Positions 9,468-54,100 of a stretch of 64,000 nucleotides of DNA are shown here, piece after piece. The position numbers and the translations under genes were made by a program. This DNA is from Lingula anatina (Eukaryota > Animalia > Brachiopoda): contig CM120648.1 in the NCBI GenBank assembly GCA_051362555.1, forward strand, positions 19,092,587 through 19,156,586, written 5' to 3'. A model generated the notes under the pieces. It did no database searches. It had not been told where the DNA came from and saw nothing but the letters and a program-made list of their open reading frames with translations. The first letter of the stretch is position 1. Each line of letters begins with the position of its first letter.

Positions 9468-9757
9468 TGTTGTGATCGAAGTTTTTTCCTTCCTCCACCT
9501 GGTCTGCTCTTCATGTGCCAAGATAGGCCACCTCAGGTGAGTGAGCTAGGCCAGGTGGGGACAGCACGCCCCCTGCAGGAGATCGTCACTATTGTGACAT
9601 CACAACTGTCACAGATCATTGTCTAATATTCTGCACTCCGTACCGGACGTGTCTAGATTGACGATCCATCTACAATTCTATCAAAGAGCATAACAATAGA
9701 CAGCGATCACTCACCAATTCAGTAAGTAGACACAGTGAATACTTTAATAACATCACA
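9468..9757 (+). repeat. 3' LTR of the Gypsy element (~285 bp; ends either 9468-9752 TGTTG..TAACA or 9471-9757 TGTGAT..ATCACA)
   Basis: Follows the PPT, has TG...CA ends, and host coding sequence resumes right after. The partner LTR is outside the window, so the ends are not confirmed. Confidence 0.72.
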
Positions 9758-10332
9758 GGGTGACAGATGTGTCCAAGTGTACTCCACCAGAGGTCAGCAG
9801 GTGACAACCATGGGTCAGGGTCTACTGGAGTTACCACTGGGTATTACACTGAACAGACAAGGTCATGTGATGGTTTGTGACAGTGTAAAGAAGTCCATCT
9901 TCACATTCCATGCAGACAGTGGACAGCTCCTGAACACTATTCCACTCAGTATGTGTAGAGACCCAGCGTACATCACAGTGAACAGTGTGAATGATAACAT
10001 TGTGATATCAGACATGGGGGGACACTGTGTACATGTGCTGTCACCTACTGGTGATCATCTGTACAAGTATGACGGCAGCAGAGAAGGCAGTAAACTGAGT
10101 TTACCACAAGGAGTGTGCACAGACAGCTATGGTCACATCTTCATTGCTGACTGGGATAACGACAGGATAGTGGCACTGAGTCCACAGGGACAGTTTATCA
10201 GATACATTGTCACTGAGGATGATGGGTTGCGGCGTCCCAGTGCAGTAGTCATCAACCCTGCTACTGGTCAGCTGGTGGTGGGAGAGTGGTGGGGCAATGT
10301 TAAGACATTCCAGTACATTGAACTGAAACAAG
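9753..10332 (+). CDS. NHL-repeat beta-propeller exon (TRIM-NHL-like), cut at its 5' side by the Gypsy LTR
   Basis: Repeated NHL blades: PLGITLNRQGHVMVCD, PAYITVNSVNDNIVISD, PQGVCTDSYGHIFIADWDNDRI, PSAVVINPATGQLVVGE. Ends at donor AAG|GTGAGT (10332/10333) or at TAG 10340. Confidence 0.85.
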
Positions 10333-11175
10333 GTGAGTAGTTCATGTATTAACTGTGGATAAATATGTTTATTATGTAAAAATTTTGAAAGTTAATTAGT
10401 CTTACAATGTTTTTATCCATTAATATGTTTGCCTTTATTTCAATAAAAAACTTTTTAAGCATATTTATATAAATTCAGTAAGCACACAGCTGTGCTTTAG
10501 TAAAAATGTATGTAGAGTGGAGACATTTTCTATAGATAATACTTTACTGTTACTGACCAATTTCCATGAACCCATTAGTGATTAGGATTTTGAATAATGA
10601 TGAAGAACTCTTTTTAATGGACTTTATAGTGTGCTTTATTTGTATTTTTATTAAGTCACATGAAAAACATCTTACATTGTTTAATCCCTGAACTTCTTGT
10701 CCATTTGTCAGTGAAGAACAACTCAAATCTCACAACAGAACAGTCCAATTCTTCATATTCTTCATCTTGTAGCTCTTCATGAAAGCTTAGATATACCTAA
10801 ATTCTCAAATGTACTTTGTCAAGTTTCTTGATGTCTTACCACTTCTAGATTCAAAGACATTTCATCACCAGTTTGTTGTTAACACACACAAATAAATTAA
10901 ATGTTGAAGTACTTTGGATGATACCTTATTTTCCTGACTTTGTAGATTGTTGTTTGCAAATAAAACTAGCAGACGACCATTTTTCATGAAATGGAACTAC
11001 TTTTTACAGGAAGTAGTGTATTCATACACAACAGTGACCTTGGGTTTGGAATACAAAAAAATAGTACATGCATTCATACTGTCACAGCATGCAAATTATA
11101 ATGAAATATACAAAACTAAACATTTTTATGTAACACAAGTTAAATGCATTTTTATTTATTAAAATAATTTATTTA

Positions 11176-11216
<41 letters not shown>
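11176..11216. repeat. (ATT)n microsatellite
   Basis: Visible trinucleotide run. Confidence 0.9.
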
Positions 11217-11218
<2 letters not shown>

Positions 11219-12333
11219 CTGGATAAAAACATTGATGAAATGGTTTTGACCACCTTTTTGGACTTTTTAAACTTCATGCTGATGGACCCACATATTTATG
11301 TCAAAGTCCCGGACCAAATCTAGTCCCATGAATAAAAAGCCCAGACCCCATGTTTATTACGCCCTGGCTGGGCCCATTCTTAATGGTGTTTGTTTTGTTA
11401 ACAGCATAGTGGGCAAGTTAATTGACCAAGTTAATTGGCCAAGCTGCCAGTTTGTTTGTATGGCATGTGCAGGGGATGTTTTATAGAATAATAAAATCAG
11501 ACAGAATATGCTGTGATTCCTAAATAAAATAGATGGGGGGGGGGGGGGGGGGGGGGGGGGGTAGTAGACACCAAGGGGCTCATGATTATAAATACCATAT
11601 AGCATTAATAATGATGGTTACATCCCAGATATTTTGCTCCTATGAACAGTGTCTTTGATATCAGTCTATCGGCAATCTCCAATCATAAATTGTTAATTTA
11701 TCAGACACTTGTAACATTAACCACATTTAATTGTTCACCCTGATTGTGAAACAGCCTTTTGCTCCAGATGTACTTAGTCTTCTCCAAATTAAAAAAAAAA
11801 AATATGGATGTTGATAAAATTTATTCTGAACAGTCTATAAGCCAGACAGATTCAGTACAATGGCATATGTATTTGTAGGTTGATAAGTTATTAAATAAAG
11901 AAAAAAAAACTTCATGTAATAATCATAATAGTGATACATAATACATGTATGATGATACATTTCACCACATTATGATGCAAACACCATCAAATGGAAACAA
12001 AAATAAACTTGTTATTAAACCAACTGAACAAATATTTGTGCCAAGCAGATATTTAGCATTGTACAATGTACATGTATTTCAGGAACTGCTCAGAATTATG
12101 CTGATTGCCATTTCAATTCTAAATTAAACAAACATCAACGTTGCCTACAAAACTGATACAACTGCACCAAATATCTCTTGCTATATGAAATACTTGTTGA
12201 AATGATGTTTTCAATAGAACTTATATTTTGTTTCATTTTTTTATTTAATCATGAGAAAAACATTCTAAAATGTTTAATCCCATTTCTTAGTATTATCATT
12301 ATGCTTCACATATATATCAAGGCTGTTGCAATG

Positions 12334-12394
12334 TTTTTTTATGTACAGACACAGATGTGTCTGTACATATAGCCATCATCTGCGTCTGTCGTCG

Positions 12395-12425
<31 letters not shown>

Positions 12426-15400
12426 GCACTTTTACCAATAACACGATAAGTGGAAAACCATTTTGCCTTTTGATTTGAAACTTGCAGAACTGATGAATAT
12501 TCATAATACGCAGGTCAAGTTCGAAAATCAGCATGATCGGGTCACTCTTAGGGAATTTATGCTGTTTTTTCACTTTTTTCAACATATATGCAGCACCGAT
12601 AACACAATAAGTGGAAAACCATTTTACCCTTTGGCTTGAAACTTACAGAACTGATGAATATTCATAATATGCAGGTCAAGTTCGAAAATCGGCATGATTG
12701 GGCCATTTTTAGGGAATTTATGCTGTTTTTTCACTTTTTCAGCATATATGCAGCACCGATAACACAGTAAGTGGAAAACCATTTTACCTTTTGGCTTGAA
12801 ACTTACAGAACTGATGAAAATTCTTAATACGCAGGTCAAGTTCGAAAATCAGCATGATTGGGCCATTTTTAGGGAATTTATGCTGTTTTTTCACTTTTTT
12901 CAGCATATATGCAGCACCGATAACACGATAAGTGGAAAACCATTTTACCTTTTGGCTTGAAACTTACAGAACTGATGAATATTCATAATACGCAGGTCAA
13001 GATCGAAAAACAGCATGATTGGGTCATTTTTAGGGAATTTATGCTGTTTTTTCACTTTTTTCAGCATATATGCAGCACCGATAACACGATAAGTGGAAAA
13101 CCATTTTACCTTTTGGCTTGAAACTTACAGAACTGATGAATATTAATAATACGCAGGTCAAGTTTGAAAATCAGCTTTATCGGGTCATTTTTATGGAAGT
13201 TATGCTATTTTTTCATTTTTTTAGCATATATGCAACATTGATACACGATAAGTGAAAAACTGTTTTACCTTTTGGCTTGAAACTTACAGAACTGATGAAT
13301 ATTCATATTACATATGCAAAGTTTGAAAATCAGCGTGATCGGACCAATTTTATGGAAGTTATGCTGTTTTTTTCACTTTTTTCAGCATGTATGCAATACC
13401 GCTAACGCATTTCAAGAAAAATCAATTGGCCAATTGTCTTGAAATTTACAGGGGAGATCAGTCTTACTGAAATACAGATGGAGTTTGAAAATGGTTCAGT
13501 TTTGGTGAAGTTATGCCTTTTTTTGTATATAAGTGTTTTTTTTTTTTTCCTTTGATTTAATTCTTAGGCATGTTAAGAATCTCCTCTGTGAACTAATTAA
13601 ATATGTAAAGGTGTTCTTTTGACATTTTCTGCATCTTAACAATATTGTTAGTTGATTATATAAAAAAGATGGTTAACCTGTTATTGTGTATTATATAACA
13701 AAGTGTCAAAAATGGAAATAATAATAAACTCATATCTTTACAGTTTGTCAGATTCAATCATTCACCATGTTCAGAATCTCAGAATGGAGCAAAATGGCAA
13801 TTTAAAATTGTTCTATTGATATTTTTCCTATGACAGCAATTTTCTTAGTTGTTCATTTAAAAATGACAGTAAATTGATTATTTTGTTATATGAAAAAAAG
13901 ATGTTGAAAATGGAAAGAAAATCAATTCAATACAGTTATCTTTTGTTTACATTTTAGCATTTTGAAAGTGTGACTCTGAACTTCCATGGCCTTGAGGACA
14001 TTTCCATGTCACATTTTCTGTAAATCCATGATACTTTTATTTTATTATTAAAAATTAATGGTCATTATATTATATTGCATAAAAGTTGAAGAAAACCCTA
14101 ATTTTGGAAATGGCTGCCGGAATGACCACTAAGGAAAAACCATGTTACTCATGATACTCAAACTTACTGAAAAGTTTCGTAAATCAGTGTGATTGTTTTC
14201 CGTTTTGGAAGCAATGTAGCTCTATAGAGTGCTATATGGGGCTACTGTGTATGGATGGTGGTAATTGCCCCTTGGGATAGTCACAAGCTAAATTCAGAGC
14301 TATAAAATCATTTGCCTAATTGATTTCCAAGTGCCCATTAAATAAGATTACATAAAACACACGCTGAGACTTCCCAGTAAAGTCCCATAGGTTAAGCTCT
14401 CTTAACTGTGTCACATAATTAGGAATCTATGATAATTATGCAGGTAAATGTTGTTTAATATTGCAAATAAGTTAAAGCAATAATAACTCTTCCTTTGAGA
14501 TTCAAAATTCCGCATGAAATACATTGTAAACAACGCATGGAAATATATTCTATTGTATTTTACCACTAAAACGGCCGTTATTGTAGTAAAACTAAAATCT
14601 GTGCTTGTCAATAGGGCTTTCGAAGCTTGCATCAAGGCATTCGTTGCTAATGACGTAATGGTGTCACGCGGATTCTCGCGTTCATTCGAGACCAAAATAA
14701 CATATGGCGCCAAACGCATTAATGCGGACGCAGACGTAAGTTGCGAGTTTTTGTACAGTGCGTCGGATAACAAAAAGCCCAGAACGGCACACATTGTGGA
14801 TATTATGTATTTTTAACAAAAAGACGAATATATCTCATGAATCTTATATAGTGTTGTTGTTGTCTGCTTTTCCCGCGGTTTTAAGTAGGTCAACAGTGAC
14901 TATGCGATGTCAGAGAGAGCTCCGTCAGTTAAAATCTCTTAAGAGATTTTAACAAAAAACCGTACGTTTAGGAAAAAAACCCTGGATTAACTTTGAATGC
15001 AGGAATGGGGTCGCTGACCATTGGTAAGTACGGGAAAATTGCCGTTTACTCCAGGAAAATCCAATTTTTGGCCAAAATGAAGAGTTATTATGACTTTAAC
15101 AAAACAAAACAAAAAAATAGATGAATAACAGTGTCTTATTATCCTCAAACACATTGGGGTTATTCATATCATGTTATTACAGCAAGATTAAAAGTTTGAA
15201 TAGTAGCTTTAATGGGATATTTTTGTGTTTTCTTTTTAATTTTTTTTTTCAAACACTGGCATTTTCAGCTCCCATCCACCTGAAGCTCTTCACATTTTCT
15301 GTATTTCCACATAAGCAGTTGCATTGGTTTTTATGTCTTTAAACATTATGTAATATTATTTTATGCACTGTCATCATTATTTAGATATTGGGATTTTCAT

Positions 15401-15740
15401 TATGTGAATTTGGTCCTGAAACTGTAATCTTATTGCAGGGGTGGATTGAGGCCATCTTCTGGGTCTTTCAGATTTTAAAGTTCACATTGATGGGCATCTC
15501 TTTTTTCTGTTGGAAGACCATCAAAAATGTAGGATGGATCAACAAAGATAATTTGGAATACTGTCAGAAAATATCTCTGGATCAGCTCCTGTTATTGACG
15601 ATGTCACCTGTTGTGCATGATTAAATTTCAGCGTTGATTGACAGTGCTATTGTAGGCATCAAAATTGACAAAATGAACCATTTTCTGCATTTTTATTTTG
15701 TGTTTTTGTCTGTACATTTGACAGCTTTGCTGCCTTGTTT
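12334..15740 (+). mobile_element. Helentron/DINE-1-like non-autonomous element, family A (160-bp tandem core)
   Basis: T run, then hairpin ATGTACAGACAC-AGAT-GTGTCTGTACAT and a (GTC/GCC)n microsatellite; ~6 x 160-161 bp repeats (12440-13400); 3' sub-TIR GTCTGTACAT (15708-17) and hairpin GACAGC-TTT-GCTGCC before a T run. Confidence 0.7.
14476..15095. mobile_element. Kolobok-like non-autonomous DNA transposon
   Basis: TTAA on both flanks (14472-75, 15096-99); AG...CT termini; TIR AGCAATAATAACTCTTC vs GAAGAGTTATTATGACT; the paralogous repeat at ~17655 lacks the insert. Confidence 0.8.
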
Positions 15741-18519
15741 ACTTTTTTCAGCATATATGCACCACCGATAACACGATAAGTGGAAAACCATTTTACCTTT
15801 TCCCTTGAAACTTACAAAACTGATGAATATTCATAATACGCAGGTCAAGTTCGAAAATCAGCATGATCGGGTCATTTTTAGGGAATTTATGCTGTTTTTT
15901 CACTTTTTTCAGCATATATGCAACCCCGATAACACCATAAGTGGAAAACCATTCTACCTTTTGGCTTGAAACTTACAAAACTAATGAATATTCATAATGC
16001 ACAGGTCAAGTTCAAAAATCAGCATGATTGGGTCATTTTTAGGGAATTTATGCGTTTTTTTTCACTTTTTTCAGCATATATGCAGCACCGATAACACCAT
16101 AAGTGGAAAACCATTCTACCTTTTGGCTTGAAACTTACAAAACTGATGAATATTCATAATACGCAAGTCAAGTTCAAAAATCAGCATGATTCGATTATTG
16201 TTAGGGAATTTATGCTGTTTTTTCACTTCTTTCAGCATATATGCAGCACTGATAACACAATAAGTGGAAAACTGTTTTTTCATTTGGCTTGAAACTTACA
16301 GAACTAATGAATATTCATAATACGCAGGTCAAGTTTGAAAATCAGCAAGATCGGGCAATTTTTATGGAAGTTATCCTGTTTTTTTTTTTTTTTTTTTTTT
16401 TCAATTTTTTCAGCACTTTTATAACACCAATAACATGATAAGTGTAAAAATGTTTTTCCTTTTGGAGTGAAATTTACAGAACTGGTGAATATTTATAATA
16501 CGCAGGTCAAGTTTGAAAATTGGCATGATTGGACTAATTTTACAAAAGTAATGCTGTTTTTTTCCCTTTATTCAGCATACATGCAACACTGATAATGCAT
16601 TTTAAGGAAAACCAATCAGCCTTTTGTCTTACAACTCACAGGAGTGATCAATCTGACCAGTATACAGATCAAGTTTGTAAATAAGCTTGATCAGTTAAGT
16701 TTTGATGAAGTTATTAGCCTTTTTGTATATAAGTGGTTTTTCTTCAGATTTAATTCTTAAGCATGTTAACAGTCTCATTACGGAACTAATTGGATATGTA
16801 AAAGTGTTGTTTTAACATTTTCTGCTTCTTAACAATATTGTTAGTTGATTATATAAAAATGACGGTAAACCTATTATCGTGCATTGTGTAATAAAGTATC
16901 AAAAATGGAAAGGAACTCATCATTGCAGTTCGTCAGATTCAATCATTCACTATGTTCAGAATCTCCAAATGGAGCTAATTGGACATTATAAATTGTTCTA
17001 TTGATATTTTTCCTATGTCAACAATTTTCCTAGTTGATCATTTAAAAATGACAGTTAATTGATTATGGTTTTATGTAAAAAAGGTGTTGAAAATGGAAAG
17101 AAAATCATTTCAGTACAGTTATCTCTTGTTAACATTTTGGCATTTTGAAAGTGTGACCCTAACTTCCATGTCCTTGGAGACCTTTCCATATCACATTTTC
17201 TGAATATCCATGATACTTTTATTTTTTTATAAAAAAATTGATGGTCATTATGTTGTTAAGTATTATGTTATATTGCATGAAAGTTAAAGAAAACCCTATT
17301 TTGGACACTGCTGCCAGGATAGCGATTAAAGGAAAACCATGTTACTTATGATAATCAACCTTACTAAAAAGACTGAAGTGCAGCTTGTGTTTGAAAACCA
17401 TCGTAATTGTTTTCTGTTTTGAAAGCAATGCAGTACAGTGCTATTTGGTGCAATAAATGTATATGGATAGTAGGCAGTTAATTCAGGGTTATAAAATAAT
17501 TTGCTTAATTAATTTTTAAGTGGGCATTAAATGAGATTACAATGAAATCTCAATGTGTGTTTATGTAAAGTCCCATCGGTTTAGCTTTCTTAACTGTGTC
17601 ACATAATTAGGAATCGATGATTATTATGCAGGTAAATGTTATTTAATATGGAAAATAAGTTTACAAAAAAAATTTTGTGTAACGCTTACATTAATGCTAA
17701 AGATGAATAACAGTGCCTTATTATTCTCAAACTCAATAGGGTTATTCATATCATTTTAGTAATTGTACAGCTAGATTAAAAGTTTGAAAAGCAGCTTTAT
17801 TGGTATTTTTTGTTATGTTTTATTTTACATTTTCTTTTAATTTTTTATGCTGTTTTTTCACTTTTTTCAACATATATGCAACATTAATAACACAATATAA
17901 GAAAAACAGCTTAGCCAATTGTCATTATATTCACAGGAGTGGTCAATCTTACAAAAATGCAGGTTGAGTTCGAAAATCAGCGTTATCGGGCCATTATTTT
18001 AGAAGTTGTACTTTTTTTTCAAATTTCCTCAGATTCAATTCTTAGGCATGTTAACAGTCTCATTATTGAACTAATAAGATACGTAAAAGTGTTTGTTTGA
18101 TATTTCCTGCATCTTTACAACATTGTTAGTTGATTATGTAAAATTGATGGTAAACTTGTTATCATGTATTGTAATCAAGTGTCCAAAACGGAAATAAACT
18201 CATATCATTGCAGTTTGTCAGATTCAATCATCCACATCTGCCATGATGACCATGATGGGAAAACCGTGTTACTTAAGATTGTCAAACTTTCAAAAAAGAA
18301 ACACAGGACTAAAATGCAGCCCGAGTTGGAAAAGCAGTCTAATAGGCTTCTTTTTCTGGAAGTTATACATTTTAGTGAAATATTCATTATCTTTTTGGCA
18401 TATTCATTGTGGGACTCGGAGCTCCCATGGACATGAAGCCGGATGGTAATCAAATTTTCTACATGTTCATGCTATTTATAGTCAATAATCAAAAATTGGT
18501 GATAATTATTCTATAATTT

Positions 18520-20259
18520 ATTAGTACCACCAGCGTGTACGCTGGCGGTACTCATGGATTTAGTCTCGACCCGTCTCGTACGGCTCCGTAAGCTCCGCCG
18601 GCTCCGTTGGCTCCGCAGGGTGTCGTGGGATACAAGTCACCGTTACCGCTTCTCCTCCTAGACCGCAATGACCTGTGCCCCCATCTCTTGGATTTAGGTC
18701 ACATATAATCTCAACTTGAACCCCCTGGTATTTTTGTCTCAGTCAGTGCTTTGGCCTGGGCGTGACGCTCGTTGAAACGCACCCTTGTCAAAATTTTGGA
18801 AAATTCAATGCTAAATATCTCCCAAACCGAAGGAAATATGGGAAAAATTACTACAGAAGTCTGACCGAAAGTCATATGTGGAGATTCCAAATATGCCCTG
18901 AGATTTGATTTTTGACCTTTATTTCAAGGTCAAACGGGCCAAAATTTTCTAAACATGGGACTTTTCTGCAAAAAAATATTTGTTTGTACCAATTTTCAGA
19001 AACTACACAGACCTAAGCTCTCATATTATGGCAAGGGGTTACAATCAGGGACTCCTTTCATCTTTGAGAGTTTGGGGTCAATAGGTGCATTTTCATGGGA
19101 GAAGCGGCCATTAGATATGAGACTGAAAACTCTCTCAAATTCTGGAACCGTAAATGCCAGAGACCTTTTGAATTTTGCAATTTTTAGGACTTGTCAAGCA
19201 CAATACTGGAGGTGGTGTCAATGTTTTTGTTTTCGATACGGTTTAGGCGTTGCGCTATATAAAAAAGTACAACGCAATATTCAGTGGTAAAAATAAAATG
19301 TGAATTACTCCAAAATTAGCAGAGATATGCCCATAGTTCCTATTGAACTTGAACTGGAAGTCATATACTGACAATCTAACTGTGACCTTGAAATTGACCT
19401 GTGACCTACTTTTCATTATGAACTGCACTTTGCAATTTTTCTGATCTTCATATCTCCAAAACTGGCAAAGATACGACCATAGTTACTATTGAACTTGATT
19501 AGGAAGTCATATACTTGCAATCTAACTGTGACCCTGAAATTGACCTTTGACCTAATTTCCACCATGAACTAAACTTTGCAAATTTTCTATCCTTTATATC
19601 TCCAAAACTGGCAGAGATACATCCAAAGTTACTGTTGAACTTGAATAGGAAGTCATATAGTGGCAATCTAACTATGGCCTTGAAATTGAGCTTTGACCTA
19701 CTTTTTATGATGAACTGCACCTTGCATGTTTTCTGGCATTTATATCTCCAAAATTGGCAAAGAAATTCCCATGGTTACTATTGACCTTGAATAGGAAGTC
19801 ATATACTCTGACCTTGAAATTGACCTTTGACCTACTTTTTCACCTGGAACTTAACTTTGCATATTTTCTTGCCCCTTATATCTTCAAAACTAGCAGAGAT
19901 ATGCCCATAGTGTTGCCCAAGGTTTACTCTTTTGTCAGCATACTACAGATGCAACAATGATAACACATTTCAAGGAAAACCAATAGGTCTATTGTCTAGA
20001 AAATCACAGGAGTGATCAGTGTTAGGAAAATACAGGTCAATTCCAAAATCTGCATGATTGGACCATTATAGTTATGTTTTTTTTTTTTTTTCATTTTTTT
20101 TACATATTTTGAGAACTCTTGTTGATTGCATTTTATAGAGCTTGTTAAGCACAAGACTGGAGGTGGTGTCCCTTTTTTTTTTTGGTTTTCCATACGAATG
20201 CGCTTACTCCAGCTGGTGGTACAATATCCGGAGGCGGTATCGCCTCTCTGATCCTCTAG
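18520..20259 (+). mobile_element. Helentron/HINE family B copy (146-bp tandem core)
   Basis: 5' GTACCACCAGC with local inverted repeat and CGGCTCCG microsatellite; 3' GCTGGTGGTAC, hairpin GAGGCG-GTAT-CGCCTC and terminal CTAG followed by T. Confidence 0.8.
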
Positions 20260-20912
20260 TTATGTAATGTTACATCAAAATTGACAATAATCTTTTTGCA
20301 CTGCTACTGCAAACATTACGAAAAGAAAACTGTGTTATTTATTATTATATTTAACTTAAGAGTATGATTTTTAGGATTGGCATGCAGTTCAAATTAGAAA
20401 GCCAGGTCAATTTGGTTATCATTTATTATTGAATTTAATGCAATTTTGTGTGAAATTTCATTTTGCTCATTCTGGCACTTTCTAAGTATAAACTTGAACT
20501 CTGATGGGCCTGAAGCCTTATGCTTTTACTTTCGTCGGTGTTACCTGTTGTGCAAAATTAAAATTTGATGTTGACTGTGCAGTTAAACATAATGTATTAT
20601 TGCATCAGAAGTGGTGGTCTCCTATTTTGTGCATATTGTTTTGTGCTCTTCTTAAGTTGTGACTTATGGGCCTGAAAGACCTTTGAGAGGGTCAGTCTAT
20701 AAATTTCCCTTGGGTATCACTTCGCTAATTTCAGTTATAAAGTAATTTGCCTATTTGATAGGCTACATAAAGCACACTTGTGATTTGAGATTACATAAAG
20801 CACACTTGTTGATATTTCCCTGTAAACTCCCATAGGTTAAGCTCTCTGTTAGATTAATAATAAGGAAGCAGTGATAATTATGCAGGTAAATTTTGTTTAA
20901 TATTGCAAATAA

Positions 20913-20919
<7 letters not shown>

Positions 20920-20994
<75 letters not shown>
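20920..20994. repeat. (AT)n microsatellite
   Basis: Visible dinucleotide run. Confidence 0.95.
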
Positions 20995-20997
<3 letters not shown>

Positions 20998-21042
20998 AAC
21001 TGAAAGATTAAAAGTTTGAATAGCAGCTTCATTGGAATTATA

Positions 21043-21226
21043 TTTACCTCTGCCAAGGAGGTTATATTTTCACCCCTGTTTGTCATCAACATAACTCAAA
21101 AAGTTATGGACCGATTTTGCTGAAATTTTCAGGAACTGTCAGAAGTGGGCCAAAGAGGACAAAAATCAATAATAATCAACAATTGCTACCTTGGCAGAGG
21201 TCTGCACTCCTGGAGTGCTTTTCTAG
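21043..21226 (+). mobile_element. Short HINE/DINE-like element, family C
   Basis: Sub-TIRs ACCTCTGCCAAGG / CCTTGGCAGAGGT, 3' hairpin GCACTCC-T-GGAGTGC, ends CTAG + T run. Confidence 0.75.
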
Positions 21227-21959
21227 TTTTGTTATGTTTTCCTTTATAATTTTTTCTCAAATACTTGCATTTGTGACTTTTAACTCTCATCCGCCTGAGA
21301 CTCTGACATTTCTGTATTTCCACATAAGCAGTTGTATTGTTTTTTATGTCTTTAAACATTATGTTACTTATGTAATATTTTTTTATGCACTGTCATCATT
21401 TTTCAAATATTTAGACTTTCATCATGTGAATTTGAACTCTCATGGTCCTGAAACTGTAATCTTATTGAAAGGGTAGATTGAGACCATCTTCTGGGACTTC
21501 CGGAAGACAGTCAGGTTATTAAGTTTATATTGCCTGGTATCTATTTTTTCTTCTGTTGGAAGACCATCAAAATGGAGGATGGATCAAAATAGATACTTTG
21601 GAATACTGTCAGAGAATATCTCTGGGTCCGCTCATGTTATTGACCATGTTACCTGACAAAATGACCTTTTTTGCATCTTTATTTTCTGTTTTTTGTCTGT
21701 ACATTTGACAGCTTTGCTGCCTTGTTTTAACTAGTAAGCAAAATCTCTTATACTGCTGCAGCACATCATCTACTAGCTATAATTTTTACATCTGATGGTT
21801 TTTAGAAGTTACTGTCCCTGTGATTCATCAGCTAATATTGTTTTTTTTTTTTTTTTATAAATCATATTGTGTAATATTATTCTGTGTTGTTGTTAAAGGG
21901 ATAACTCATAAAAATATAACAAATTATGTTTTACCACTAAAATGGCAGTCAACACATTT

Positions 21960-23615
21960 ATTAGTACCACCAGCCTGTAAGCTGTTGGTACTCCTAATTT
22001 TATTCCCGCCCCGTCTCATACAGCTCCACTAGATCCGCATTCTGGAGCCGGATACAAGTCACCATTCTCCTCCTAGACCCCAAGGACCCATGTCCTCATC
22101 TCTTGGATTTAGGTCACATATTATCTCAATTTGAACCCTTTTTTTGGCTCAGTTGGTGCATTATCCTGGGCATGACGTTCGTTGAAACGCACCCTTGTCA
22201 AAATTTTTGAAAATTCGATGCCAAATATCTCTCAAACCAAAGGAATTATCGGAAAAATTACTATAGAATTTTGACCGAAAGTCATATTTGAAGATTCCAG
22301 ATATGCCCTTGGATTTGACAGTTGACCTTTATCTCAAGGTCAAACAGGCCAAAATCTCCTAAAAATGGGGATTAAAAAAAAATATGTTTGTGCCAACTTT
22401 TAGAAACTACACCGACCTAAGTGGGGGGATTACAATTTGGGACTTCATCTTTGGGAGTTTGGGGTCAATCGGTGCATTTTCACTGGAGAGGCAGCCGTTA
22501 GATGCCAAAGCTGAAAACTCTCTATTAAACCAGGGGCCGGTTTCACAAAGCAGTAGTTAGTTAGAACAACTAACTACTGAACTACCTCGCTAACGAGCAA
22601 ACTTAGCGATTTTCGAGGGGTGTTTCACGAAGCAGTCGTTAACTCATTGCTAAGTTCAGTCATAAAGTTCGGTCGTTAGTTCTCTCGTTACTCACCGTAG
22701 TCTCGAAACCGTCTGCCGGAAGTGGAACTCTTGCGTAAAAGTGTCACGAAAGCACAAACTCTCCATTTTTTGGTGGCTGGAAATGCATTAGAACGTCTGC
22801 TTTGAGGTCGTCGTAAAGGATCTCCACCACCTTTTTGCCGCTCTTTTTGTCACAGCTAGGCGCAACCTCTCATAACTTGCATCATCGTGTGTATATTCTA
22901 ATAGATTCTGCCTTTCATGAAAACGTCGTAGTCTACGTTGCCGTCTGGCGGTACGGATAGCAAGAAAAGTAGCCGCCATATTGGATACAAAGACAAACGA
23001 CAGACAACGGTAACTAAGCAACCTTTTTATTTCACTCATTACGCATGCGTACAATGAAACTCTAGAGTTAGCGACTGGTCTGACCAGTCGTTAAATATCC
23101 AAGGCAACAACGAGACAATAACGAGCGAGAGAACTAGCGACTGCTTCGTGAAACGGCACTCTAACTAGCGAGAGGCTAACTACCGATCGCTAACTAACTA
23201 CTGCTTTGTGAAACCGGCCCCAGAACCCTAAATACAAGAAACCTCTTGTTTTTTGCATTACGTAGAGCTTGTCAAGCTCAATTAATACTGGGGTTGGTAT
23301 CCATTTTTTTTGTTTGTTTTTGGTATGTAGGTAAGGAGTTGTGCTATACAAAAAAGTACATTTCGATATTCAGTAGTGAAGCAAAATGTGAAATACTCAA
23401 AAACTGGCAGAGATACACCCATGGTTACTATTGACCTTGAATAAGAAGTCACATACTGGCAGCCAAACTGTGACCTTGAAATTGACCTTTGACCTACTTT
23501 TTCATCTTAAACTAAGTCTTGCAAATTTTTTGCCTCTTTTATCTGCAAAAATGGCAGAGATACACTTATAGTTACTATTGACCTTGAATAGGAAGTCATA
23601 TACTGGCAATCTTAC
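21960..23615 (+). mobile_element. HINE family B copy, 3'-truncated and interrupted by a Harbinger MITE
   Basis: Same 5' end (TTAGTACCACCAGC) and body as 18520-20259; no CTAG end. Confidence 0.7.
22534..23220. mobile_element. PIF/Harbinger non-autonomous deletion derivative
   Basis: Perfect 31-bp TIRs GGGCCGGTTTCACAAAGCAGTAGTTAGTTAG; CAG TSD (22531-33, 23221-23); - strand remnant MAATFLAIRTARRQRRLRRFHERQNLL resembles a Harbinger transposase N-terminus. Confidence 0.85.
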
Positions 23616-24075
23616 TCTACGCTGCTTTGTAATCTGGAACATAGTCCATCTTACACGTCAGACTTTGTGTGCAAATCGACTTTGTGATTTATGAAAAATG
23701 TCTGTATACTTCACTTTGTTCTTCAGCAGTGATTCAGTATCCAGATTACATACCCTTTTTATCTATCTGTCTATTTTACTCGAAGTTTGTTTTACCCTGA
23801 TATAAATAACGCACCATAGTATTTTTGGGAATTTCTCAATTCAATTCAAAAATTTAATTAATCTGCGATTTATCGACTTTTGTCATCGTGAAAATGTGAG
23901 ATTTTATATAACACACTGTTACTCTCAAGCACATATGCAGGCATCCACCTCTCTAGATTTTCTCTTGCTTCCTCTCTGCTATCACTTCACAATAAATATA
24001 ACGTCTGCAAACATCATCGTTCACCTTATCCATGAGTCCTTTTGTCAATCTGAAGCATAACATTTGTATTACCAG

Positions 24076-24306
24076 GTGAGTTTAATGAACGGCTTCAACG
24101 GTTGTGTGAAAGTGGTAAGATTCCAGTATACCGACAGCGAGTAGCTATTGTTGGACCTTACGGTGTGGGAAAGACTCATCTCGCCAAGCGCCTCATCCAT
24201 GAGGAATATATCAAAGAAGAAGATGCAAATACAACTGGCGTGAATATATACCGCCATAGGTGTGTTGTCCATAAAGCTGGCCGATCCTGTTGGATCAGAG
24301 GAAAAG
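24076..24306 (+). CDS. ROCO-HEPN gene exon: ROC GTPase G1/G2
   Basis: tttgtattaccag| ... |gtaagc, phase 1-1; RVAIVGPYGVGKTHL P-loop, NTTGV switch I. Confidence 0.88.
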
Positions 24307-24755: not shown

Positions 24756-24911
24756 ATGATCCAAAAGACCAGTTTGCACAAAATATGGCAATTGGAGTAC
24801 AGAATTCAGATACGTTTTGCCAGCCGGACTTAACAGTATTAGACCAAACGCCACTAGAGGAATCCCTACCAGATTCGGAAGTGAATATTAATAACATGCT
24901 GACAAATAGAG
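24756..24911 (+). CDS. ROCO-HEPN gene exon: acidic insertion within ROC
   Basis: attctcag| ... G|gtattg, 156 nt, phase 1-1, open (DDPKDQFAQNMAIGV...MLTNR). Confidence 0.72.
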
Positions 24912-25210
24912 GTATTGTACATGATTGTCTCGAATAGTTCATCTTGGTGCAATTTAAACAGATATTTGTACAATGTAGTTATTCTTCTTTTTTGCCAAGA
25001 GATTCCACCTTCTATGTTTTTTTTTTTCGTTGGCCATTCCACATATATGTGCCTTGGAGACAGCATCCCAAATTTTATTTTATATGTTTAAATTTTGTAA
25101 AGAAATTCCTTTCTAAATTCTTTTATCTTAGCCATGTTTTTGTTTACTTTAAAGTTGAGTCATTTTCTGCTAGAATGGTGTTTGATATTATTCTTCTCTT
25201 TATTCTACAG

Positions 25211-25261
25211 CCGCTCCCCCTGATGACAGTGAATTACCTGCCTCTCCTGACAAAACAGCAG
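25211..25261 (+). CDS. ROCO-HEPN gene 51-nt exon, copy 1 (AAPPDDSELPASPDKTA)
   Basis: ctctttattctacag| ... CAG|gtaaat, phase 1-1. Confidence 0.7.
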
Positions 25262-25408
25262 GTAAATAGTGCACATGTAGTAAAACAAGATTCTCGTGTA
25301 TTCTTAGCTTGCCGATTAGGTATGTGAGTGTCTACATTCTTATTTTCATCAAACTGGGACTTAGAACTCACACGGGCATGAAGCTCAGAGGTAATCAAAT
25401 TTTCTTAA

Positions 25409-35867: not shown

Positions 35868-35918
35868 CCGCTCCCCCTGATGACAGGGAATCACCTGCCT
35901 CTCCTGACAGAGAAGCAG
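35868..35918 (+). CDS. ROCO-HEPN gene 51-nt exon, copy 2 (AAPPDDRESPASPDREA)
   Basis: ctctttattctacag| ... CAG|gtaagt, phase 1-1; paralog of 25211-25261 including flanking intron. Confidence 0.7.
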
Positions 35919-35978
35919 GTAAGTAGTGCACATGTAGTAAAACAAGATTCCGTCTTTTGCTCAGAATCTGCGAGTGTT

Positions 35979-39900: not shown

Positions 39901-40699
39901 TTATATTGTCTATATATTCTATATCATCAAGCAGAGAATTATTGAATTTCCATAACCCTTTACCTTTCCTAAATGGGTTAAATTCAATATTAATCCCTAC
40001 AATGGAGTGGTCGGATCTATAACTCGATTCGATAAATGAGTTTTTAATACTTCTTACAAGGTTTTCTGTCACAAGGAAAAAATCTAGTCTCGCTTGTTTA
40101 ATGGGATTTTTTCTCCTCCAAGTATATCTCTTATAACATTCATGTTGTTCTCTATACACATCAACTAAATCATAAATTTCAATAAGTTCTAATACTTTTT
40201 TTCTTGCTTTTGGGTTGTTTATATGTCGATATGTCTGATCATAATCTATTTCTGGATTTAGAACCAAGTTGAAATCACCACAGATAATAGAGTACTCATT
40301 ATCGGTATCCTGTAGCCCCAATTCTATCTGTTTATAGAAGTCGGGAGAATCAAGATTTGGACCATATATATTGATCAATGTCACTTTTCTATCTTCTAAT
40401 AAACAATTTTGTAATAGAAAGTTACCCGCATCGTCTTTTTTTTCACTGATTACTTTAACATCGGCAGTGTTATTTAAAAGTATAGCGACACCCCTCGAGT
40501 TCGACCTGTACGAGCTAAAATAGGCCTTATATCCCCACTCAGACCTAACCCTTGATTCTATTTCAGACGTAAAATGTGTGTCTTGTAGGCATAGGATATC
40601 ATATTTCTGTTGCCTTAAATAAGAAAATATGTCTTTCCTTTTTTGTCTATCCCCAAGGCCCTGGCAGTTAACGGAAACAATCTTAATACAACTTGTCAT
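36928..40699 (-). pseudogene. LINE ORF2 (APE endonuclease - RT - CCHC), disrupted by one frameshift and one stop
   Basis: SVNCQGL, LQDTH, GDFN, RLDFFL, SDH (endonuclease); KSPGSDG, LDFEKAFD, RQGDP, QYADD (RT); CKRC..ETIIHVLWDC. Frameshift in the A run at ~39267-74; in-frame TAG at 37876-78 (likely from TGG). Confidence 0.93.
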
Positions 40700-40927
40700 T
40701 TGAATATACGGCTCTAATAAATGTCGAGGTTAGCTTTTTCCCTTATTTTGCTTTTCATCGCTCTCACCTCAAAACAACTTTTTACCACCACCAGATTGGC
40801 ACCGTTCTTCCAAATAGCTCCACCTATCATCAACATAAAAATATAATGCAATAAGTACACATTAATTCTACTAGTGGACGAGTATAAGAAAAAAGGTAAA
40901 ATTAACATAATTTGTCATTGTAGGCTA

Positions 40928-44799: not shown

Positions 44800-46032
44800 C
44801 TAATCTAATTGGAGAGCGTCAATTGCGGACTCTTGATAATAACTGAATCTCTCTGAATTTAAGTGCTGTCCAACCACCCTTGACACTACAATCAATCTAT
44901 TTTCTACCCTCTTGGCTTCTAGGAGGTTGGCCAGTGTTTTGGCTACACTTACATCGTTATTGTCATTGTAATATACTGTCCAGGCACCGCCACTTTTTAT
45001 TCTGTAGGCGTAAACAAGCGAGGCTCCGCTTACTTGGCCGCCTGCTATTATGGAGGCAAGCGCAGATTGTGCGTCTTCGACTGAATTCACTCTTGTAGAG
45101 ATTCCCATAAAGGAGTTACCCTTTGCTTTAGTTTTCTTTTCAGAGAACTTTATTTCATGTCGATGGTTTTTCCTATGTGTTGGTAGGTTTTTTAAACAGT
45201 TATCGGGCTTGCGATCATCTGGGGTATATAAGGAGTTATTTATATAGAGTTTTTCGCCCACTAACCTGTGTTTGATATTTTTTGCCCTTAATTCTTTCAT
45301 GACGGGATAGAGCGTTCTTCTTCTTTCTTCCACCTCCTTGGGATACTGGTCAGTTATCCTTATGTAGGTGCCCTTCAGATTTTTGGTATATTTCATAACA
45401 GTTCTTTTGTCATGGAATGTCGTACATTTTGCTATTATTGCCCGCGGTTTGGGTCCGTTAGTTACCGATCCAATGCGATGAACCCTATCAAAAGACACGG
45501 TTTCTTCCGCGGGGATCTTCATCTGTTGAATCAGCACCTGTCTCAGTGTATTCTCCACGTTTTCCTGCGGTCCAGTCTCGGGAATGTTATGAAATAGTAG
45601 GTTATCTCTCATGGATCTCGTTTGTAGATTTATCATTATCTGGTGATCCGTGTCGACTTGTCTTTGTAGGCTTTGTACTCTCTGCTCGCTAATATTGAGT
45701 TGTTCTCTTAGCACATTGTTCTCAGTTTCAAGAGCACTTACTTTCTCGTCCAGTTGGGTCATATTTTCATCGAGACTTTTAACCGAAATCTCAACTTGTT
45801 TGAGAGAATCTTTGAAGGTTTTTGTAATGGCGTCCAGTTTATCTTCGAACTTTGCCAAACAATCACTGATAATGTCCCTGATTTCGGTATTGTCTGTAAT
45901 GAGATATTTGTCACCCTCTTTTTTTCTTGAGCTTTTATCCATATTGCTCTCTTTGATGTGGAGTTTGGCCAACGGTGTGTTTTCTGTACTGGATGATGAA
46001 CTATGGGAAGTCCTTTGTCTTCCCCGTTTCAT
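44800..46032 (-). CDS. LINE ORF1p (coiled coil + RRM/CTD) with C-terminal IMPACT/UPF0029-like domain
   Basis: Heptad coiled coil; RSMRDNLLFHNIPE, DRVHRIG..PRAIIAK, ITDQYPKEVEERRRTLYP; tail GNSFMG..YAYRI..NDNND..NRLIVVSRVVGQHLNSERF. Confidence 0.88.
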   Translation of the reverse strand: MKRGRQRTSHSSSSSTENTPLAKLHIKESNMDKSSRKKEGDKYLITDNTEIRDIISDCLAKFEDKLDAITKTFKDSLKQVEISVKSLDENMTQLDEKVSALETENNVLREQLNISEQRVQSLQRQVDTDHQIMINLQTRSMRDNLLFHNIPETGPQENVENTLRQVLIQQMKIPAEETVSFDRVHRIGSVTNGPKPRAIIAKCTTFHDKRTVMKYTKNLKGTYIRITDQYPKEVEERRRTLYPVMKELRAKNIKHRLVGEKLYINNSLYTPDDRKPDNCLKNLPTHRKNHRHEIKFSEKKTKAKGNSFMGISTRVNSVEDAQSALASIIAGGQVSGASLVYAYRIKSGGAWTVYYNDNNDVSVAKTLANLLEAKRVENRLIVVSRVVGQHLNSERFSYYQESAIDALQLD

Positions 46033-46751
46033 TGTTTCATTGGCGCGATTTTTAAACGCACAAAAAATTCTCTTTTATCGTCACAGTACCGGGAACCCTG
46101 CCCCTTTCCGCTGTCATTTCACTTTATATTCATCCTCACACAGTCAGCCACAGTCCAACTACAACCGATCATATATAATTTAAGTATTTTATCACCGTGG
46201 CCCCAGCTTGAGTTCTACACCGCCGCCATCTTGTTCTCGTTCCGAGTGTTGTTCTTAGCTTGTCGATTAAGTATGTGAGTTCCTGCATTCTTATTTTCAT
46301 CAAACTGTATTAATAATGTTACATTAAAATTGACTATACCTTACAATTTTAATTGATTTTAATTAATGTTAAAACATTCAGTGTTTATCACCCCGTTATG
46401 TTTTGAGCTTACCCACTTGTATTCATCAGAGAGGATACATTTTTAAGAAAAAAATTTTTTTTCGCAAATTGCCGTTAAACCTTCAGAAACAGACGAAAGC
46501 TTCTAATTTATTTGATAACTGTTTCACAAAGTTAATTGACACTAAACACATTCAAATTTTGTGAATAATTACGATACTTTTTTATGCTAAAAAGTTTTAT
46601 TTTAACTGCACTGTTTATTGTACAGTCCTCATACCTCTGGGGAAGAAAACATGAGTAGAATAAGAATGTTGACGATATGTCGATGTATGAACAGTCCCTG
46701 ACAAATGAAATAAATTAGATTGAAAGCAAGTCTATAAAGATTAAGGTCTAG

Positions 46752-47016: not shown

Positions 47017-47262
47017 TGGCAGAAAGGGACCATCTAGATGATATTGACAAGGAGCTATTGGAAAAAATTGAGAAAATTGCCCGAGGAGAAGATGTGGAGC
47101 CAGAGAAACAGGTCACAATTTGGGATTTTGCAGGACAGGATGTCTACTACACCACGCACCAAACATTCCTCTCAGAGCGGATCATCTACTTGTTGGTATT
47201 CCGACTTGACCAGGACCTCGATGATAAAATCCGTGTATACAGGGGAGAGAAGACACTGAAAG
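47017..47262 (+). CDS. ROCO-HEPN gene exon: ROC G3
   Basis: ttcttcgcag| ... AAAG|gtattg, phase 1-1; TIWDFAGQDVYYTTHQTFLS ROC signature. Confidence 0.92.
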
Positions 47263-47438: not shown

Positions 47439-47460
47439 CATTGAGTTTTTAGTAGTGTTA

Positions 47461-50582: not shown

Positions 50583-50707
50583 AGTTTATTATGTTTTGGT
50601 TAAACTCAATCCATATGCACACTATTGGAAAATTGAGGGAAGAAGACAAAAATGCCATGCCATACGTCTTGATTATTGGAACTCATAAGGACATGTTATG
50701 CGCACAG
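50583..50707 (+). CDS. ROCO-HEPN gene exon: ROC G4
   Basis: catttttcag| ... CAG|gtgaaa, phase 1-0; FWLNSIH and VLIIGTHKD. Confidence 0.9.
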
Positions 50708-51085: not shown

Positions 51086-52268
51086 GGCGACGTTGAAAAG
51101 ATTTTTGATAAACTCAAGAAGTGTCTCGACGACAGGCAGGTACTCAAGGACCACGTCTACCGATATTTTGCCATAAGCAACTTGGCCGAAGATGATGGGG
51201 AGTTCGCTGAAATAAAAAAAGCGATCGAAGATTTGTGCGGTTATAGCAGCAACAGTATTGCTACCGTTCAACATCTTTCAGTGAATTGGATTAAATTGGA
51301 AATGAATTTGGCAGAGAAGAGTGAAGAAACCCCCATCATATCTATTGAAAAACTGAGGGAAATGGCAAAAAGGGTAGGACTCCCTGATGAAGAATTACAA
51401 GAAAAGTTCATTCCTTACCATCACCGTCAAGGCGACATCCTACACTTCAAAGTTGATGGACTGGAAAATGTCGTCATAATAGATCCACTTTGGTTAGCAG
51501 ATGTGTTTTCTGCCATCATGACCAATGCCAGCAGTCAACCTGGAGGCAGTCACTTTGATCTCCTGAAAGACGATCTGAAAAGAGGAGTGCTCAATGAGGA
51601 GGTATTTGATGAATATCTAAAACAAATCAAAATGGCCGAAAAAAAGACTGAAATCATTCAACTTATGCTGCATTTCGACTTGATGTTAGAAATATCCCAA
51701 GCAGTTGAAAACCCTCTGCCCGGGTCTGGAAAGAGAAGATTTGTCGTGCCCAGTATGCTGGTATCCAATAACAGTGTAAATAACGCCTTGTCTGAGACGG
51801 ATCCACAGAAATATTTGCTTATCGCATTCCCTCACATTCTGTTTCCTACCGGGTTGTTTCATCTTCTGATCATCCGTCTTCTTAGGAAGTATAGAGCTCA
51901 GGAATATAAACATAACATTCCAGTTGTTGGGTTTGACCATGCCTCCTTCCGTTTGGGAGACGAACAGTCGGTGCTCCATCTCGCCATTGAAGAAAGGGCC
52001 ATGAGAATGATGATAACAAACGCTACTGGAAACAAACCAAAACCTGACATATACTCCAATGCACGGGAAACCGTTGAAAAAGAACTGTCAACTCTTCGGG
52101 ACACGTACTGTCCCAGGATGCAGTTAGGCTTTTGCATTCGGTTAAAAGACAAAGGAAAAGATATTCCAATAAAAGCAGAAGACGTCCAAGAAAACGATGA
52201 GATATGTAGATCTGTAGAGGGCACTGAAATGCCAATCGATGTGACACCGTATCGTGTTTGGTTTTCAG
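51086..52268 (+). CDS. ROCO-HEPN gene exon: end of ROC + COR domain
   Basis: ttattcatag| ... TCAG|gtaagc, phase 0-1; FAISN, WIKLE, YHHRQGDILHF, VIIDPLWLADVF, FVVPSML, PTGLFHLL. Confidence 0.92.
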
Positions 52269-53004
52269 GTAAGCATTAAAATTTTAGGTAGTTTTGCTGT
52301 GAACAGACATTGTTCCTGAATATAATTAGGGGTAATGTAGTCATTGAAATCGGTGTTAAACTGATGTAAATGCAACTAATCATATTGGGTGATGTACTAA
52401 GATTTACATGAAGAGAATTAATATTTCAAATTGTTGCCAATAAACCAAACTTTATATATTTTAAAATAATGTAACTTGATAAATACCCAAAGGTATTTTT
52501 TATAATCCCCGAAAATGATATATCAGCATTTTTCCCCTTGGCAAATTTTGCCCATCGCCTTTGTTAGAACAATATAAATATCTCCTACAAAATCATGCAA
52601 TTTATATTTTAATCATTCCAACAATATGAGTTTTACATGGGCATCAACGTCTGTGTGAGGGTAAGACTGTTGCAATTCTATGTACCGAACATTTTTCATA
52701 TAAACTGTCCCATATTAGATTTATTACCCAGCCATGCACGTGGCTAGAATTGTTTTAACTTCTAATTTAAAAACAAATGCCCAAGCATATTTGGAAAACA
52801 TTTAATGACAAAAATAAATACTATGCCCTGGTCGTATTTTGAGAATTTACCTGCGGTGCAGAAGGTAAATGTACAGCAGGTTACCTTTTGCTCACAACAC
52901 ATATCTATTAATAAGTTTCTTCATACTTAAATTACATGTATATTATTAATTGCTAATTATGGTTCATCATGTGCATATTCTTGTAATCCTTCTTATTCTT
53001 ACAG

Positions 53005-53037
53005 TGAGTGCACAGGCAGTACAAGCAAGTGATCCAG
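53005..53037 (+). CDS. ROCO-HEPN gene 33-nt linker exon (VSAQAVQASDP)
   Basis: tcttattcttacag| ... CCAG|gtaatt, phase 1-1. Confidence 0.65.
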
Positions 53038-53342
53038 GTAATTTTGTATTTGGTAGTGCTTAGCTTAGGCTAAGAAGTACAAGCATTATTCTTATTTTTA
53101 CTTCTATTTTTATCTTTTAACTTACAAATCTTCAATATAAAGAAATAGCGTATTGTTACTAGCATGTACCCCCTGTTCATATGACTACATTTCACTGACT
53201 ACATATTTCTCCCATAATGCAGTGGTGGTTGCCGTATATTTTACACAAACACACACACACACACTAGTATACTACTCTATCTCTCTTTCCCTATAAAATT
53301 CTTGTTCAAAAAGCATTGATCATTATCATATGTTTCTATTAG

Positions 53343-54100
53343 TAGGTGCGAATGCCCCAGATGTGTCACAGAGGTTTGCAAGGCTGAGTTATCTCGTTGT
53401 TGAACTTGGAACAAAAGTCATAAGAACTTTCTTTCTCAAGGATGTTGTTAGGCCTAGCATCACTAATGGTGAGCACATCAGTGATAAAGATGCAGTGCTT
53501 CAGTTTTTTGGTAAGCATGACGTGATAAGGGAACTTGAGAAACTCAAGAAAACAAAAGTCATATATGCTTCTCAGTGGAATCTGTTGTACCCTGCCTCTG
53601 GTCATACAGATGTGGAAACGTTTGACATTACATTGCTGGTGTTATTGATAAGAAATCTTCACCCAGACAAAGCCAACCTGAAATGGTCAGCGCTCAAAGA
53701 AAATACCACTTTACCTTCCTCTCCACAAACAACACAAGGTTTCATCGACCACATCCAACGGCTTAAGAATGTCAGGAACTATATACAGCATTCCGCCACA
53801 TTTGGGATCCAAGACATGGAGAAATTCTGCACAAATTGGGAAATCGCCTGTGTTTCTGTTCTAGCACTTGGTGCAGATCCAAAGGAAGTGAAAAAGATAC
53901 AGGAATTCAACTTTAGCAAACAGGAGATAGATACAATAGTGTGCGAAATACGCAGCTCGGCCGAAGATAACAAACGGCATTTCGACAGCAGATTTGACAG
54001 GCTTGAATTACTAATATTTTCCTTTGTACGTGATGTTCGCTTTGCCATCTTCTTTGTCGTCCTCATTGCGTTAGCCATAAATTACCAGTGGTGGATTTAG
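53343..54100 (+). CDS. ROCO-HEPN gene last exon: DZIP3-type HEPN domain + C-terminal TM helix
   Basis: TAGTAG tandem acceptor, phase 1; FARLSYLVVELG, QWNLLYP, FDITLLVLLIRNL, RLKNVRNYIQH (Rx4H at 53774-53791); hydrophobic tail FAIFFVVLIALAINYQWWI-stop. Confidence 0.87.

Follow-up and report, generated by a model that had tools for sequence, protein, structure and literature searches.

An NHL propeller spliced to a ROC-COR gene in Lingula anatina: a family-level fusion with a predicted HEPN RNase end, in a copy likely disabled by a Gypsy element

In the brachiopod Lingula anatina, an exon encoding an NHL β-propeller is joined by splicing to a gene of the ROCO type, and this junction is real at the level of the gene family. 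The gene concerned lies at 9747-54100 of the window, the whole stretch of 64,000 nucleotides (nt) analysed here (assembly GCA_051362555.1, contig CM120648.1, positions 19,092,587 to 19,156,586, forward strand). The best reading of the evidence is that it is one member of a mix-and-match family of immune proteins with a sensor, a ROC-COR switch and an exchangeable effector (HEPN, caspase or RHIM-like ends). With a probability of about 0.55, the family member has its NHL domain spliced to ROC and is predicted to run on via COR into a HEPN RNase anchored in a membrane, likely serving when intact as an immune sensor, switch and executioner, and likely disabled in this copy by the long terminal repeat (LTR) of a Gypsy retrotransposon.

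Gene model

Ten exons bordered by GT and AG join into a single frame of 3420 nt (1139 codons, no internal stop), along which NHL, ROC, COR, a DZIP3-type HEPN domain and a hydrophobic tail follow one another, with all module borders (NHL/ROC/linker/HEPN) in phase 1 (Table 1). The domains are recognised by Pfam with E values of 9e-14 for NHL, 2.2e-6 and 3.6e-8 for Roc on two exons, 3.4e-22 for COR-A and 2.9e-19 for HEPN_DZIP3 (PF18738). An earlier inspection of the letters alone, referred to below as the sequence-only reading, had proposed that the NHL exon ends at 10332 in the phase-1 donor AAG/GTGAGT, that the first ROC exon lacks a Met and follows a phase-1 acceptor (AG at 24074-24075), and that splicing gives one open frame; the sites are as described, and the frame stays open over all ten exons. 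It had also pointed to an in-frame TAG (10338-10340) and an AATAAA (10442) behind the donor, both of which are present, and had called the intervening DNA almost all repeats. This holds for at least 73% of 10333-24075, which recurs within the window, but not for five unique blocks of 317-844 nt, in which the longest stop-free frames on the plus strand measure 47-84 codons.

The first Met of the NHL remnant is at 9810, and 9747-9752 is compatible with both the LTR end and the host exon. The last exon has a tandem acceptor (53343/53346), both sites being in frame. The two 51-nt mini-exons within ROC lie in a local duplication (25080-25293 and 35749-35950, 88% alike including the flanks); single and double copies both occur in the reads, and another joint goes back 26 letters with 7 letters between.

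Transcript evidence for the NHL-to-ROC splice

Seven of the nine raw-read runs of the species were aligned (X1, X2, X4, X5, X6, X7 and X9), and reads join the NHL exon to the ROC exon, 10332 to 24076, as the sequence-only reading had proposed. In run X4 (198 reads aligned), 11 reads hang loose before 24074 with a consensus equal to window 10301-10330; the junction reads at 24074 come from this one of four runs, the other three having 5-12 reads each. From the other side, loose ends begin behind 10338 in X5 (14 reads) and X6 (87 reads), with mixed consensuses of which 25 and 28 of 30 letters, compared by eye, agree with the ROC exon, while 19 and 13 reads behind the donor in X4 mostly continue to other partners. 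Loose ends occur at 10338 as well as at 10332 because intron 1 (10333-10338) and the ROC exon (24076-24081) open with the same six letters, an identity that is possibly a trace of the origin of the donor site. The identical NHL-ROC junction is held by two RefSeq models of Lingula anatina, P0008 and P0011. Further downstream, reads join on to 24756, to the mini-exons and to 47017 (38, 35 and 27 reads, respectively), which carries the read evidence for splicing up to 47017.

The NHL remnant could instead end alone at the TAG and AATAAA, the ROC exon then using another upstream exon. Stop and signal are in place, the agreement among the loose ends at 24074 is 0.81, P0005 has a HEPN domain in front of the ROC type that matches the window's, and P0047 starts inside the intron. 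This is opposed by the junction reads and the two RefSeq models, and also by read depth, which past the donor falls from 165-260 to 10-24 in X6 and stays flat beyond 10442, and falls to 0-3 in X4 and X5; no pile of read ends is found near 10460, and use of the independent ending is not detectable. All nine stand-alone NHL proteins inspected stop just after the last strand, and the window exon carries instead the extension of the fused group, in keeping with its position in the tree; the unique intron blocks hold no long frame. A separate ending is largely refuted by the junction reads and the depth at 10442-10460, and of the alternatives considered here it is the one we find hardest to credit.

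A Gypsy insertion in the propeller exon

Where the sequence-only reading had placed an NHL propeller (9753-10332), an NHL domain is indeed present, but it amounts to just the last two thirds of one, cut at about 9752 by a Gypsy 3' LTR. The element is assigned to Gypsy by its gag, the order protease, reverse transcriptase (RT), RNase H and integrase, its polypurine tract and its LTR, of which one copy lies within the window. Sequence, paralogs and reads agree on the boundary. Likeness to the paralogs begins at 9747, corresponding to paralog residue 116-118, and the 115 preceding residues are absent from the window copy; 212 reads from four of four runs extend before 9747 into this absent NHL sequence; and at the 5' edge of the LTR, reads from other copies of the element hang loose before 9466-9468. 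A search for the absent 115 residues across the window did not find them (best E 0.031).

The paralog P0008 has six complete blades in its AlphaFold model (predicted local distance difference test, pLDDT, mostly >90); set against it, the window remnant lacks its closing strand, all of blade 1 and one half of blade 2, and on the model it is likely unable to close a propeller. Because the LTR interrupts the propeller exon, the window copy is likely disabled, and other alleles or paralogs therefore likely supply the intact receptor. The still intact downstream frame suggests that the insertion is recent.

The same intact frame allows an allele that is alive, in which the LTR would drive a short transcript from Met 9810 (or splice to ROC) and give a sensor-less ROC-COR-HEPN protein with its transmembrane (TM) end under altered control. 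LTR and gene have the same orientation, Met 9810 lies in a good context, and the sense depth of X6 is unbroken over LTR and intron. However, none of the joints listed comes from the LTR, which has neither TATA nor poly(A) consensus, its reads fall on both strands with other flanks, as is typical of multi-copy repeats, and an intact frame is equally expected after a recent insertion; we therefore hold such a live allele to be very unlikely. Within the LTR, a GT donor-like site lies at 9534-9542, and the NHL frame is stopped three times. In X6, continuous sense depth of 10-25 runs over the Gypsy 3' end, the LTR and the intron (9300-10900) with fixed differences from the window; the animal sampled may carry the insertion, or pre-mRNA and other copies of the element may each contribute part of the signal.

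Within the element, the pol frame changes between 3543 and 3654 and beyond integrase goes on, at 6222-8687, to encode a PHD finger and a TatD nuclease domain whose metal-site motifs can be recognised. The term "TatD" was not found in the papers from a limited literature search.

Origin and variable face of the propeller

The nearest solved structure is that of TRIM3 (7qrw; phmmer E 5.6e-30, Foldseek E 2.6e-20, root-mean-square deviation, rmsd, 2.2), followed by TRIM2. In the NHL tree (49 rows, with 3 short ones dropped), the seven fused NHLs form one branch (support 95/85) within a Lingula expansion of TRIM-NHL proteins. Because this branch nests in the TRIM-NHLs and the N-terminus of the fused propellers aligns to the linker of the Lingula TRIM-NHLs, the module likely arose, as far as the alignments tell, when a TRIM-NHL gene was truncated and acquired a donor site. 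In P0008-P0012 neither RING nor B-box is detected and NHL is followed by ROC, so these proteins do not have the TRIM-NHL layout.

The d-a and b-c loops of a propeller form its ligand face. Among six fused propellers, columns with at least three residues make up 24 of 70 in the top loops, 0 of 53 in the bottom loops and 9 of 140 in the strands, with loops defined from the strands of the P0008 model. The read variants listed in the NHL exon are nearly all non-synonymous (24/25) and mostly in top loops (20/25), these 25 being a subset beside 187 further variant rows and the top loops having been set by motifs after the alignment was viewed.

The proposal of the sequence-only reading that the propeller senses RNA is not supported, as the nearest relatives are TRIM2 and TRIM3, the top face is hypervariable, and, according to passages of PMC5908797, neither the Brat nor the LIN41 RNA-binding surface is significantly conserved in the TRIM2/TRIM3 subfamily. 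An intact protein that detects and cuts foreign RNA, like RNase L in one chain, may still be argued for from the same passages, which describe NHL surfaces as fast-evolving and Brat and LIN41 as binding RNA via quite different surfaces, so that unconserved residues do not exclude binding; four invariant basic residues in the top loops and an effector of the RNase type point the same way. Against this, all five full propellers carry a net acidic charge (K+R 18-29, D+E 27-33), top-loop residues and charge vary among paralogs, the nearest structures remain those of TRIM3 and TRIM2, and the same propeller clade is also joined to partners that are not RNases. An RNA sensor is consequently doubtful, and a diverse, paralog-specific ligand is more likely than one fixed RNA motif.

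The ROC-COR switch and the HEPN end

The ROC motifs are intact (G1 GPYGVGKT, G3 WDFAG, G4 GTHKD), and COR follows straight after ROC in frame, in the same order as in P0001-P0005, at a junction that lies outside the read evidence. The P-loop exon scores best as Roc/Ras, with NACHT and NB-ARC below the cut-off; by this analysis the protein would be NLR-like in its working, yet it is no NLR. In the HEPN domain, R143, N144 and H148 are invariant over 21 aligned sequences and the catalytic motif is intact in 23 of 23 relatives checked. The parts of the GTPase-switched RNase proposed by the sequence-only reading, ROC G-motifs and HEPN R-x4-H, are accordingly present as predicted from their motifs. 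In the part of PMC8266594 that deals with it, R-x4-6-H is the HEPN catalytic motif, and a dimer is required that sets two motifs side by side.

By sequence, the HEPN domain has no match in the PDB (best E 0.16). Its model is all-helical with a low mean pLDDT of 68.7; the best hit of a fold search with it (Z 7.2, rmsd 3.4, 87 aligned) is no described HEPN, and Csm6 (Z 5.7, rmsd 3.8, 106 aligned) and AbiF (Z 5.4, rmsd 5.7, 139 aligned) appear amid generic helical bundles. Hydropathy averaged over 19 residues peaks at the C-terminus (2.2).

From these parts a mechanism can be outlined. The intact protein, of about 1250 amino acids, would face the cytosol, anchored by its tail in an internal membrane, where a foreign or damage ligand might bind the variable propeller face. 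Binding would shift the nucleotide-linked monomer-dimer cycle of ROC-COR, of the kind described in PMC5714945 for the Roco protein of C. tepidum, for which GTP binding and hydrolysis are also known. The GTP or the GDP state of the switch, with either polarity conceivable, would let an active HEPN pair form or set it free. RNA would then be cut at the membrane by two HEPN domains brought together at their R-x4-H motifs, and the outcome may be translation shutdown or cell death.

Family and exchange of modules

The closest relatives are RefSeq models of Lingula anatina (COR 6/6, NHL 35/37). Each part of the architecture is found in these uncharacterized proteins, namely NHL-ROC in XP_013379953.1 and XP_023930482.1, ROC-COR-HEPN-TM in XP_023933246.1 and NHL-ROC-COR in XP_013403180.1; the first three are 83-91% identical to the window gene over shared parts, and the NHL exons of the models are uninterrupted, unlike that of the window copy. 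P0001 covers the stretch from mini-exon to tail with 83% identity and overlaps P0011. The window NHL is sister to that of P0009, whose ROC-COR is distant (25% in COR), and the window ROC exons share 92-100% identity with P0008, P0011 and P0047; to judge by these likenesses, the window gene is a mosaic. Close ROC-COR proteins end in HEPN (P0001, P0003), a caspase (P0002) or a weak RHIM-like motif (P0004), and the fused NHL branch continues into two ROC types or into a CARD-like protein, P0010, with a propeller and a weak CARD-like region. The ROC-COR tree accommodates one or more swaps between HEPN and caspase ends without resolving their number. The accession of a caspase fragment, P0182, is adjacent to that of P0001 (ROC-COR-HEPN-TM), a hint of clustered effector modules.

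Proteins with both NHL and ROC number 4 of 181 collected, all from L. anatina, which is weak evidence on range; the combination NHL, ROC and COR in one protein, which the sequence-only reading had suggested looking for among paralogs, is found in P0009, without an effector. When P0011 was searched against representative proteins, the matches were swamped by giant repeat proteins. In the Atlas, a mostly mollusc cluster of 123 members (Roc 41%, NHL 21%, score 0.88) offers a lead, and only that, to co-occurrence of NHL and Roc in molluscs, against a range confined to Lingula, and a cluster of 100 members (Roc 100%, COR 96%, HEPN_DZIP3 71%, score 0.92) suggests that ROC-COR-HEPN is common in molluscs.

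Weighing the evidence

Several points weigh against an immune receptor that runs from NHL to a membrane-bound HEPN RNase and was broken here by an insertion. Most reads come from other haplotypes, 129 of the 1768 on the NHL stretch being at least 99% alike to the window, and the junction is therefore established at the level of the family and not of this particular allele. Beyond 47262, the evidence for the remaining four junctions is the open frame and the models P0001 and P0003, not reads; the predicted membrane anchor rests on a hydropathy of 2.2 and a low-confidence helix, and the RHIM and CARD matches lie below the Pfam cut-offs. The 5' LTR, the target-site duplication and the upstream NHL half are all outside the window, and the insertion is known from the assembly sequence, in which an error is possible. 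The four basic top-loop residues invariant among the fused propellers leave RNA binding conceivable. Sixteen stand-alone TRIM-NHLs share the variability of the top face (entropy 1.67 top, 0.69 bottom), which is therefore inherited and no mark of the fusion. Finally, no annotated protein spanning NHL to HEPN was found among the proteins searched; the model P0011 stops behind the G4 exon, and P0009 lacks an effector.

The last of these points, together with the unread junctions after 47262, would also fit a signalling scaffold, in which transcripts end after ROC or COR and HEPN-TM stays outside the main product, or HEPN is non-catalytic and serves RNA binding or dimerisation only. A scaffold is distinctly unlikely, given that the exons are colinear, bordered by GT and AG and in one open frame, that P0001 and P0003 join COR to HEPN, and that none of the 23 relatives has lost the catalytic motif. 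A receptor with an RNase end remains the preferred reading.

Comparison with known systems

The nearest parallel in design is prokaryotic. In the sections of Kaur et al. 2021 (PMC8195603) on AP-GTPase (Roc)-COR counter-invader proteins, a variable N-terminal repeat sensor is likewise combined with a swappable C-terminal effector, of which there are at least 24, with several paralogs per genome, and its supplement includes LRR-ROC-COR-HEPN (two Thioflexothrix proteins) and β-propeller-ROC-TIR forms. In the supplements searched, "NHL" occurs in the sequence file only, and the places listed, 2 of 52, are alignment rows. By contrast, the Lingula gene consists of phase-1 exons and has a propeller derived from TRIM-NHL, a DZIP3-type HEPN and a predicted tail anchor.

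Among animals, the HEPN_DZIP3-NACHT NLR-like proteins of the pearl oyster (PMC9646362, in the passages concerned) share the HEPN family with R-x4-H, the lineage-specific expansion and the pairing of a repeat sensor with a nucleotide switch; in Lingula the switch is ROC-COR instead of NACHT, and HEPN is C-terminal and predicted to be membrane-anchored. The DZIP3/hRUL138 HEPN family is of the same HEPN type, and ROC and NHL are not among the fusions listed in the passages of PMC3710099 on it. Expanded and exon-shuffled immune candidates with ROC-COR, as in Lingula, are the LRR-ROCO candidate receptors of brown algae (PMC11378527), Aplysia TIR-ROCO (PMC9334734) and Owenia ROC-caspase (PMC11463336); the main texts of these three papers contain no "NHL", and their relevant passages no HEPN on a ROCO protein. 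The six-bladed NHL fold is common to the fused propeller of Lingula and the TRIM-NHL proteins (TRIM2/TRIM3, Brat, LIN41/TRIM71), whereas the Lingula form has no RING, B-box or coiled coil, and its propeller is N-terminal and continued by splicing. RNase L and Ire1 (HEPN/KEN), as treated in passages of PMC3710099, combine a sensor, a nucleotide-binding module and a HEPN RNase in one chain, and Ire1 is membrane-bound, comparable to the predicted anchor in Lingula; this is a functional analogy only, as the Lingula gene has neither kinase nor ankyrin repeats and belongs to a different HEPN family.

No description of an NHL-ROCO protein, or of NHL with HEPN-TM in an animal, was found in the open literature, though the design could be listed in some supplements or among the roughly forty animal ROCO architectures shown in Figure 2 of PMC11378527. 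This is, then, an expressed and apparently undescribed animal variant of the sensor-ROC-COR-effector design, seen here in a likely disrupted copy.

Other elements in the window

The intron before 47017 holds a long interspersed nuclear element (LINE) and an open reading frame (ORF) with a coiled coil, which we take to resemble LINE ORF1. These and the remaining features are listed in Table 1.

Table 1. Features of the window, with positions counted from its first letter
Feature	Position	Strand	Evidence or remark
Gypsy LTR retrotransposon, internal part	2..8687	+	ORFs, Pfam; 5' end outside window
Gypsy frames: gag; protease-RT; second frame (RT/RNase H/integrase, PHD finger, TatD)	2-1630; 1603-3654; 3543-8687	+	ORFs, Pfam, motifs
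Polypurine tract of Gypsy element	9454..9467	+	sequence
3' LTR, TG...CA, 285 nt	9468..9752	+	adjoins NHL remnant
NHL exon remnant, half of blade 2 to blade 6 plus fused-clade extension	9747..10332	+	phase-1 donor; Pfam, reads
Intron 1, 13.7 kb	10333..24075	+	at least 73% repeated; holds TAG (10338), AATAAA (10442)
146-nt and 160-nt tandem-unit families	12404-34463		recur through introns
ROC exon 1: P-loop (G1) and G2 region	24076..24306	+	Pfam Roc; joint to next exon in 38 reads
Acidic insert within ROC	24756..24911	+	read joints; tblastn
51-nt mini-exon, copy 1	25211..25261	+	read joints
51-nt mini-exon, copy 2	35868..35918	+	joints going back 51, 4-read loose end; P0011 holds both copies
LINE, endonuclease and RT in separate frames	36928-40729	-	intron before 47017; ORFs, Pfam
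ORF with coiled coil and UPF0029 domain	44800-46074	-	intron before 47017; ORFs, Pfam
ROC exon, G3 motif WDFAG	47017..47262	+	Pfam Roc; loose ends behind 25261 match exon start
ROC exon, G4 motif GTHKD	50583..50707	+	sequence and tblastn, no reads
ROC end and COR	51086..52268	+	Pfam COR-A; 84% to P0001; no reads
33-nt linker exon	53005..53037	+	matches P0001 linker; no reads
Last exon: DZIP3-type HEPN (R-N-x3-H), long helix, predicted C-terminal membrane anchor, stop	53343..54100	+	Pfam; no reads
67-nt tandem array	57540-58576		repeat scan
BEL/Pao retrotransposon ORF, 1318 codons	60044-64000	-	open to window end; ORFs, Pfam

Significance

A wider proposal, which we put forward tentatively and at somewhat less than even odds, is that exon shuffling has given Lingula an NLR-like receptor repertoire with ROC-COR at its core, with hypervariable propellers derived from TRIM-NHL proteins, GTP switches and exchangeable executioners, in which the HEPN-TM form would be a membrane-tethered, ligand-gated RNase and an independently evolved equivalent of RNase L. 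As the window copy is likely a disrupted allele, the intact paralogs are better suited to further work. If the proposal is true, lophotrochozoans would gain a diversified class of intracellular receptors that is based on a GTPase and not on a NACHT ATPase, with recognition coupled directly to RNA cleavage. Because RNA cutting needs a HEPN dimer, such a ROCO protein would have a simple read-out, by which the "on" nucleotide and oligomer state of LRRK2-type switches would become testable.

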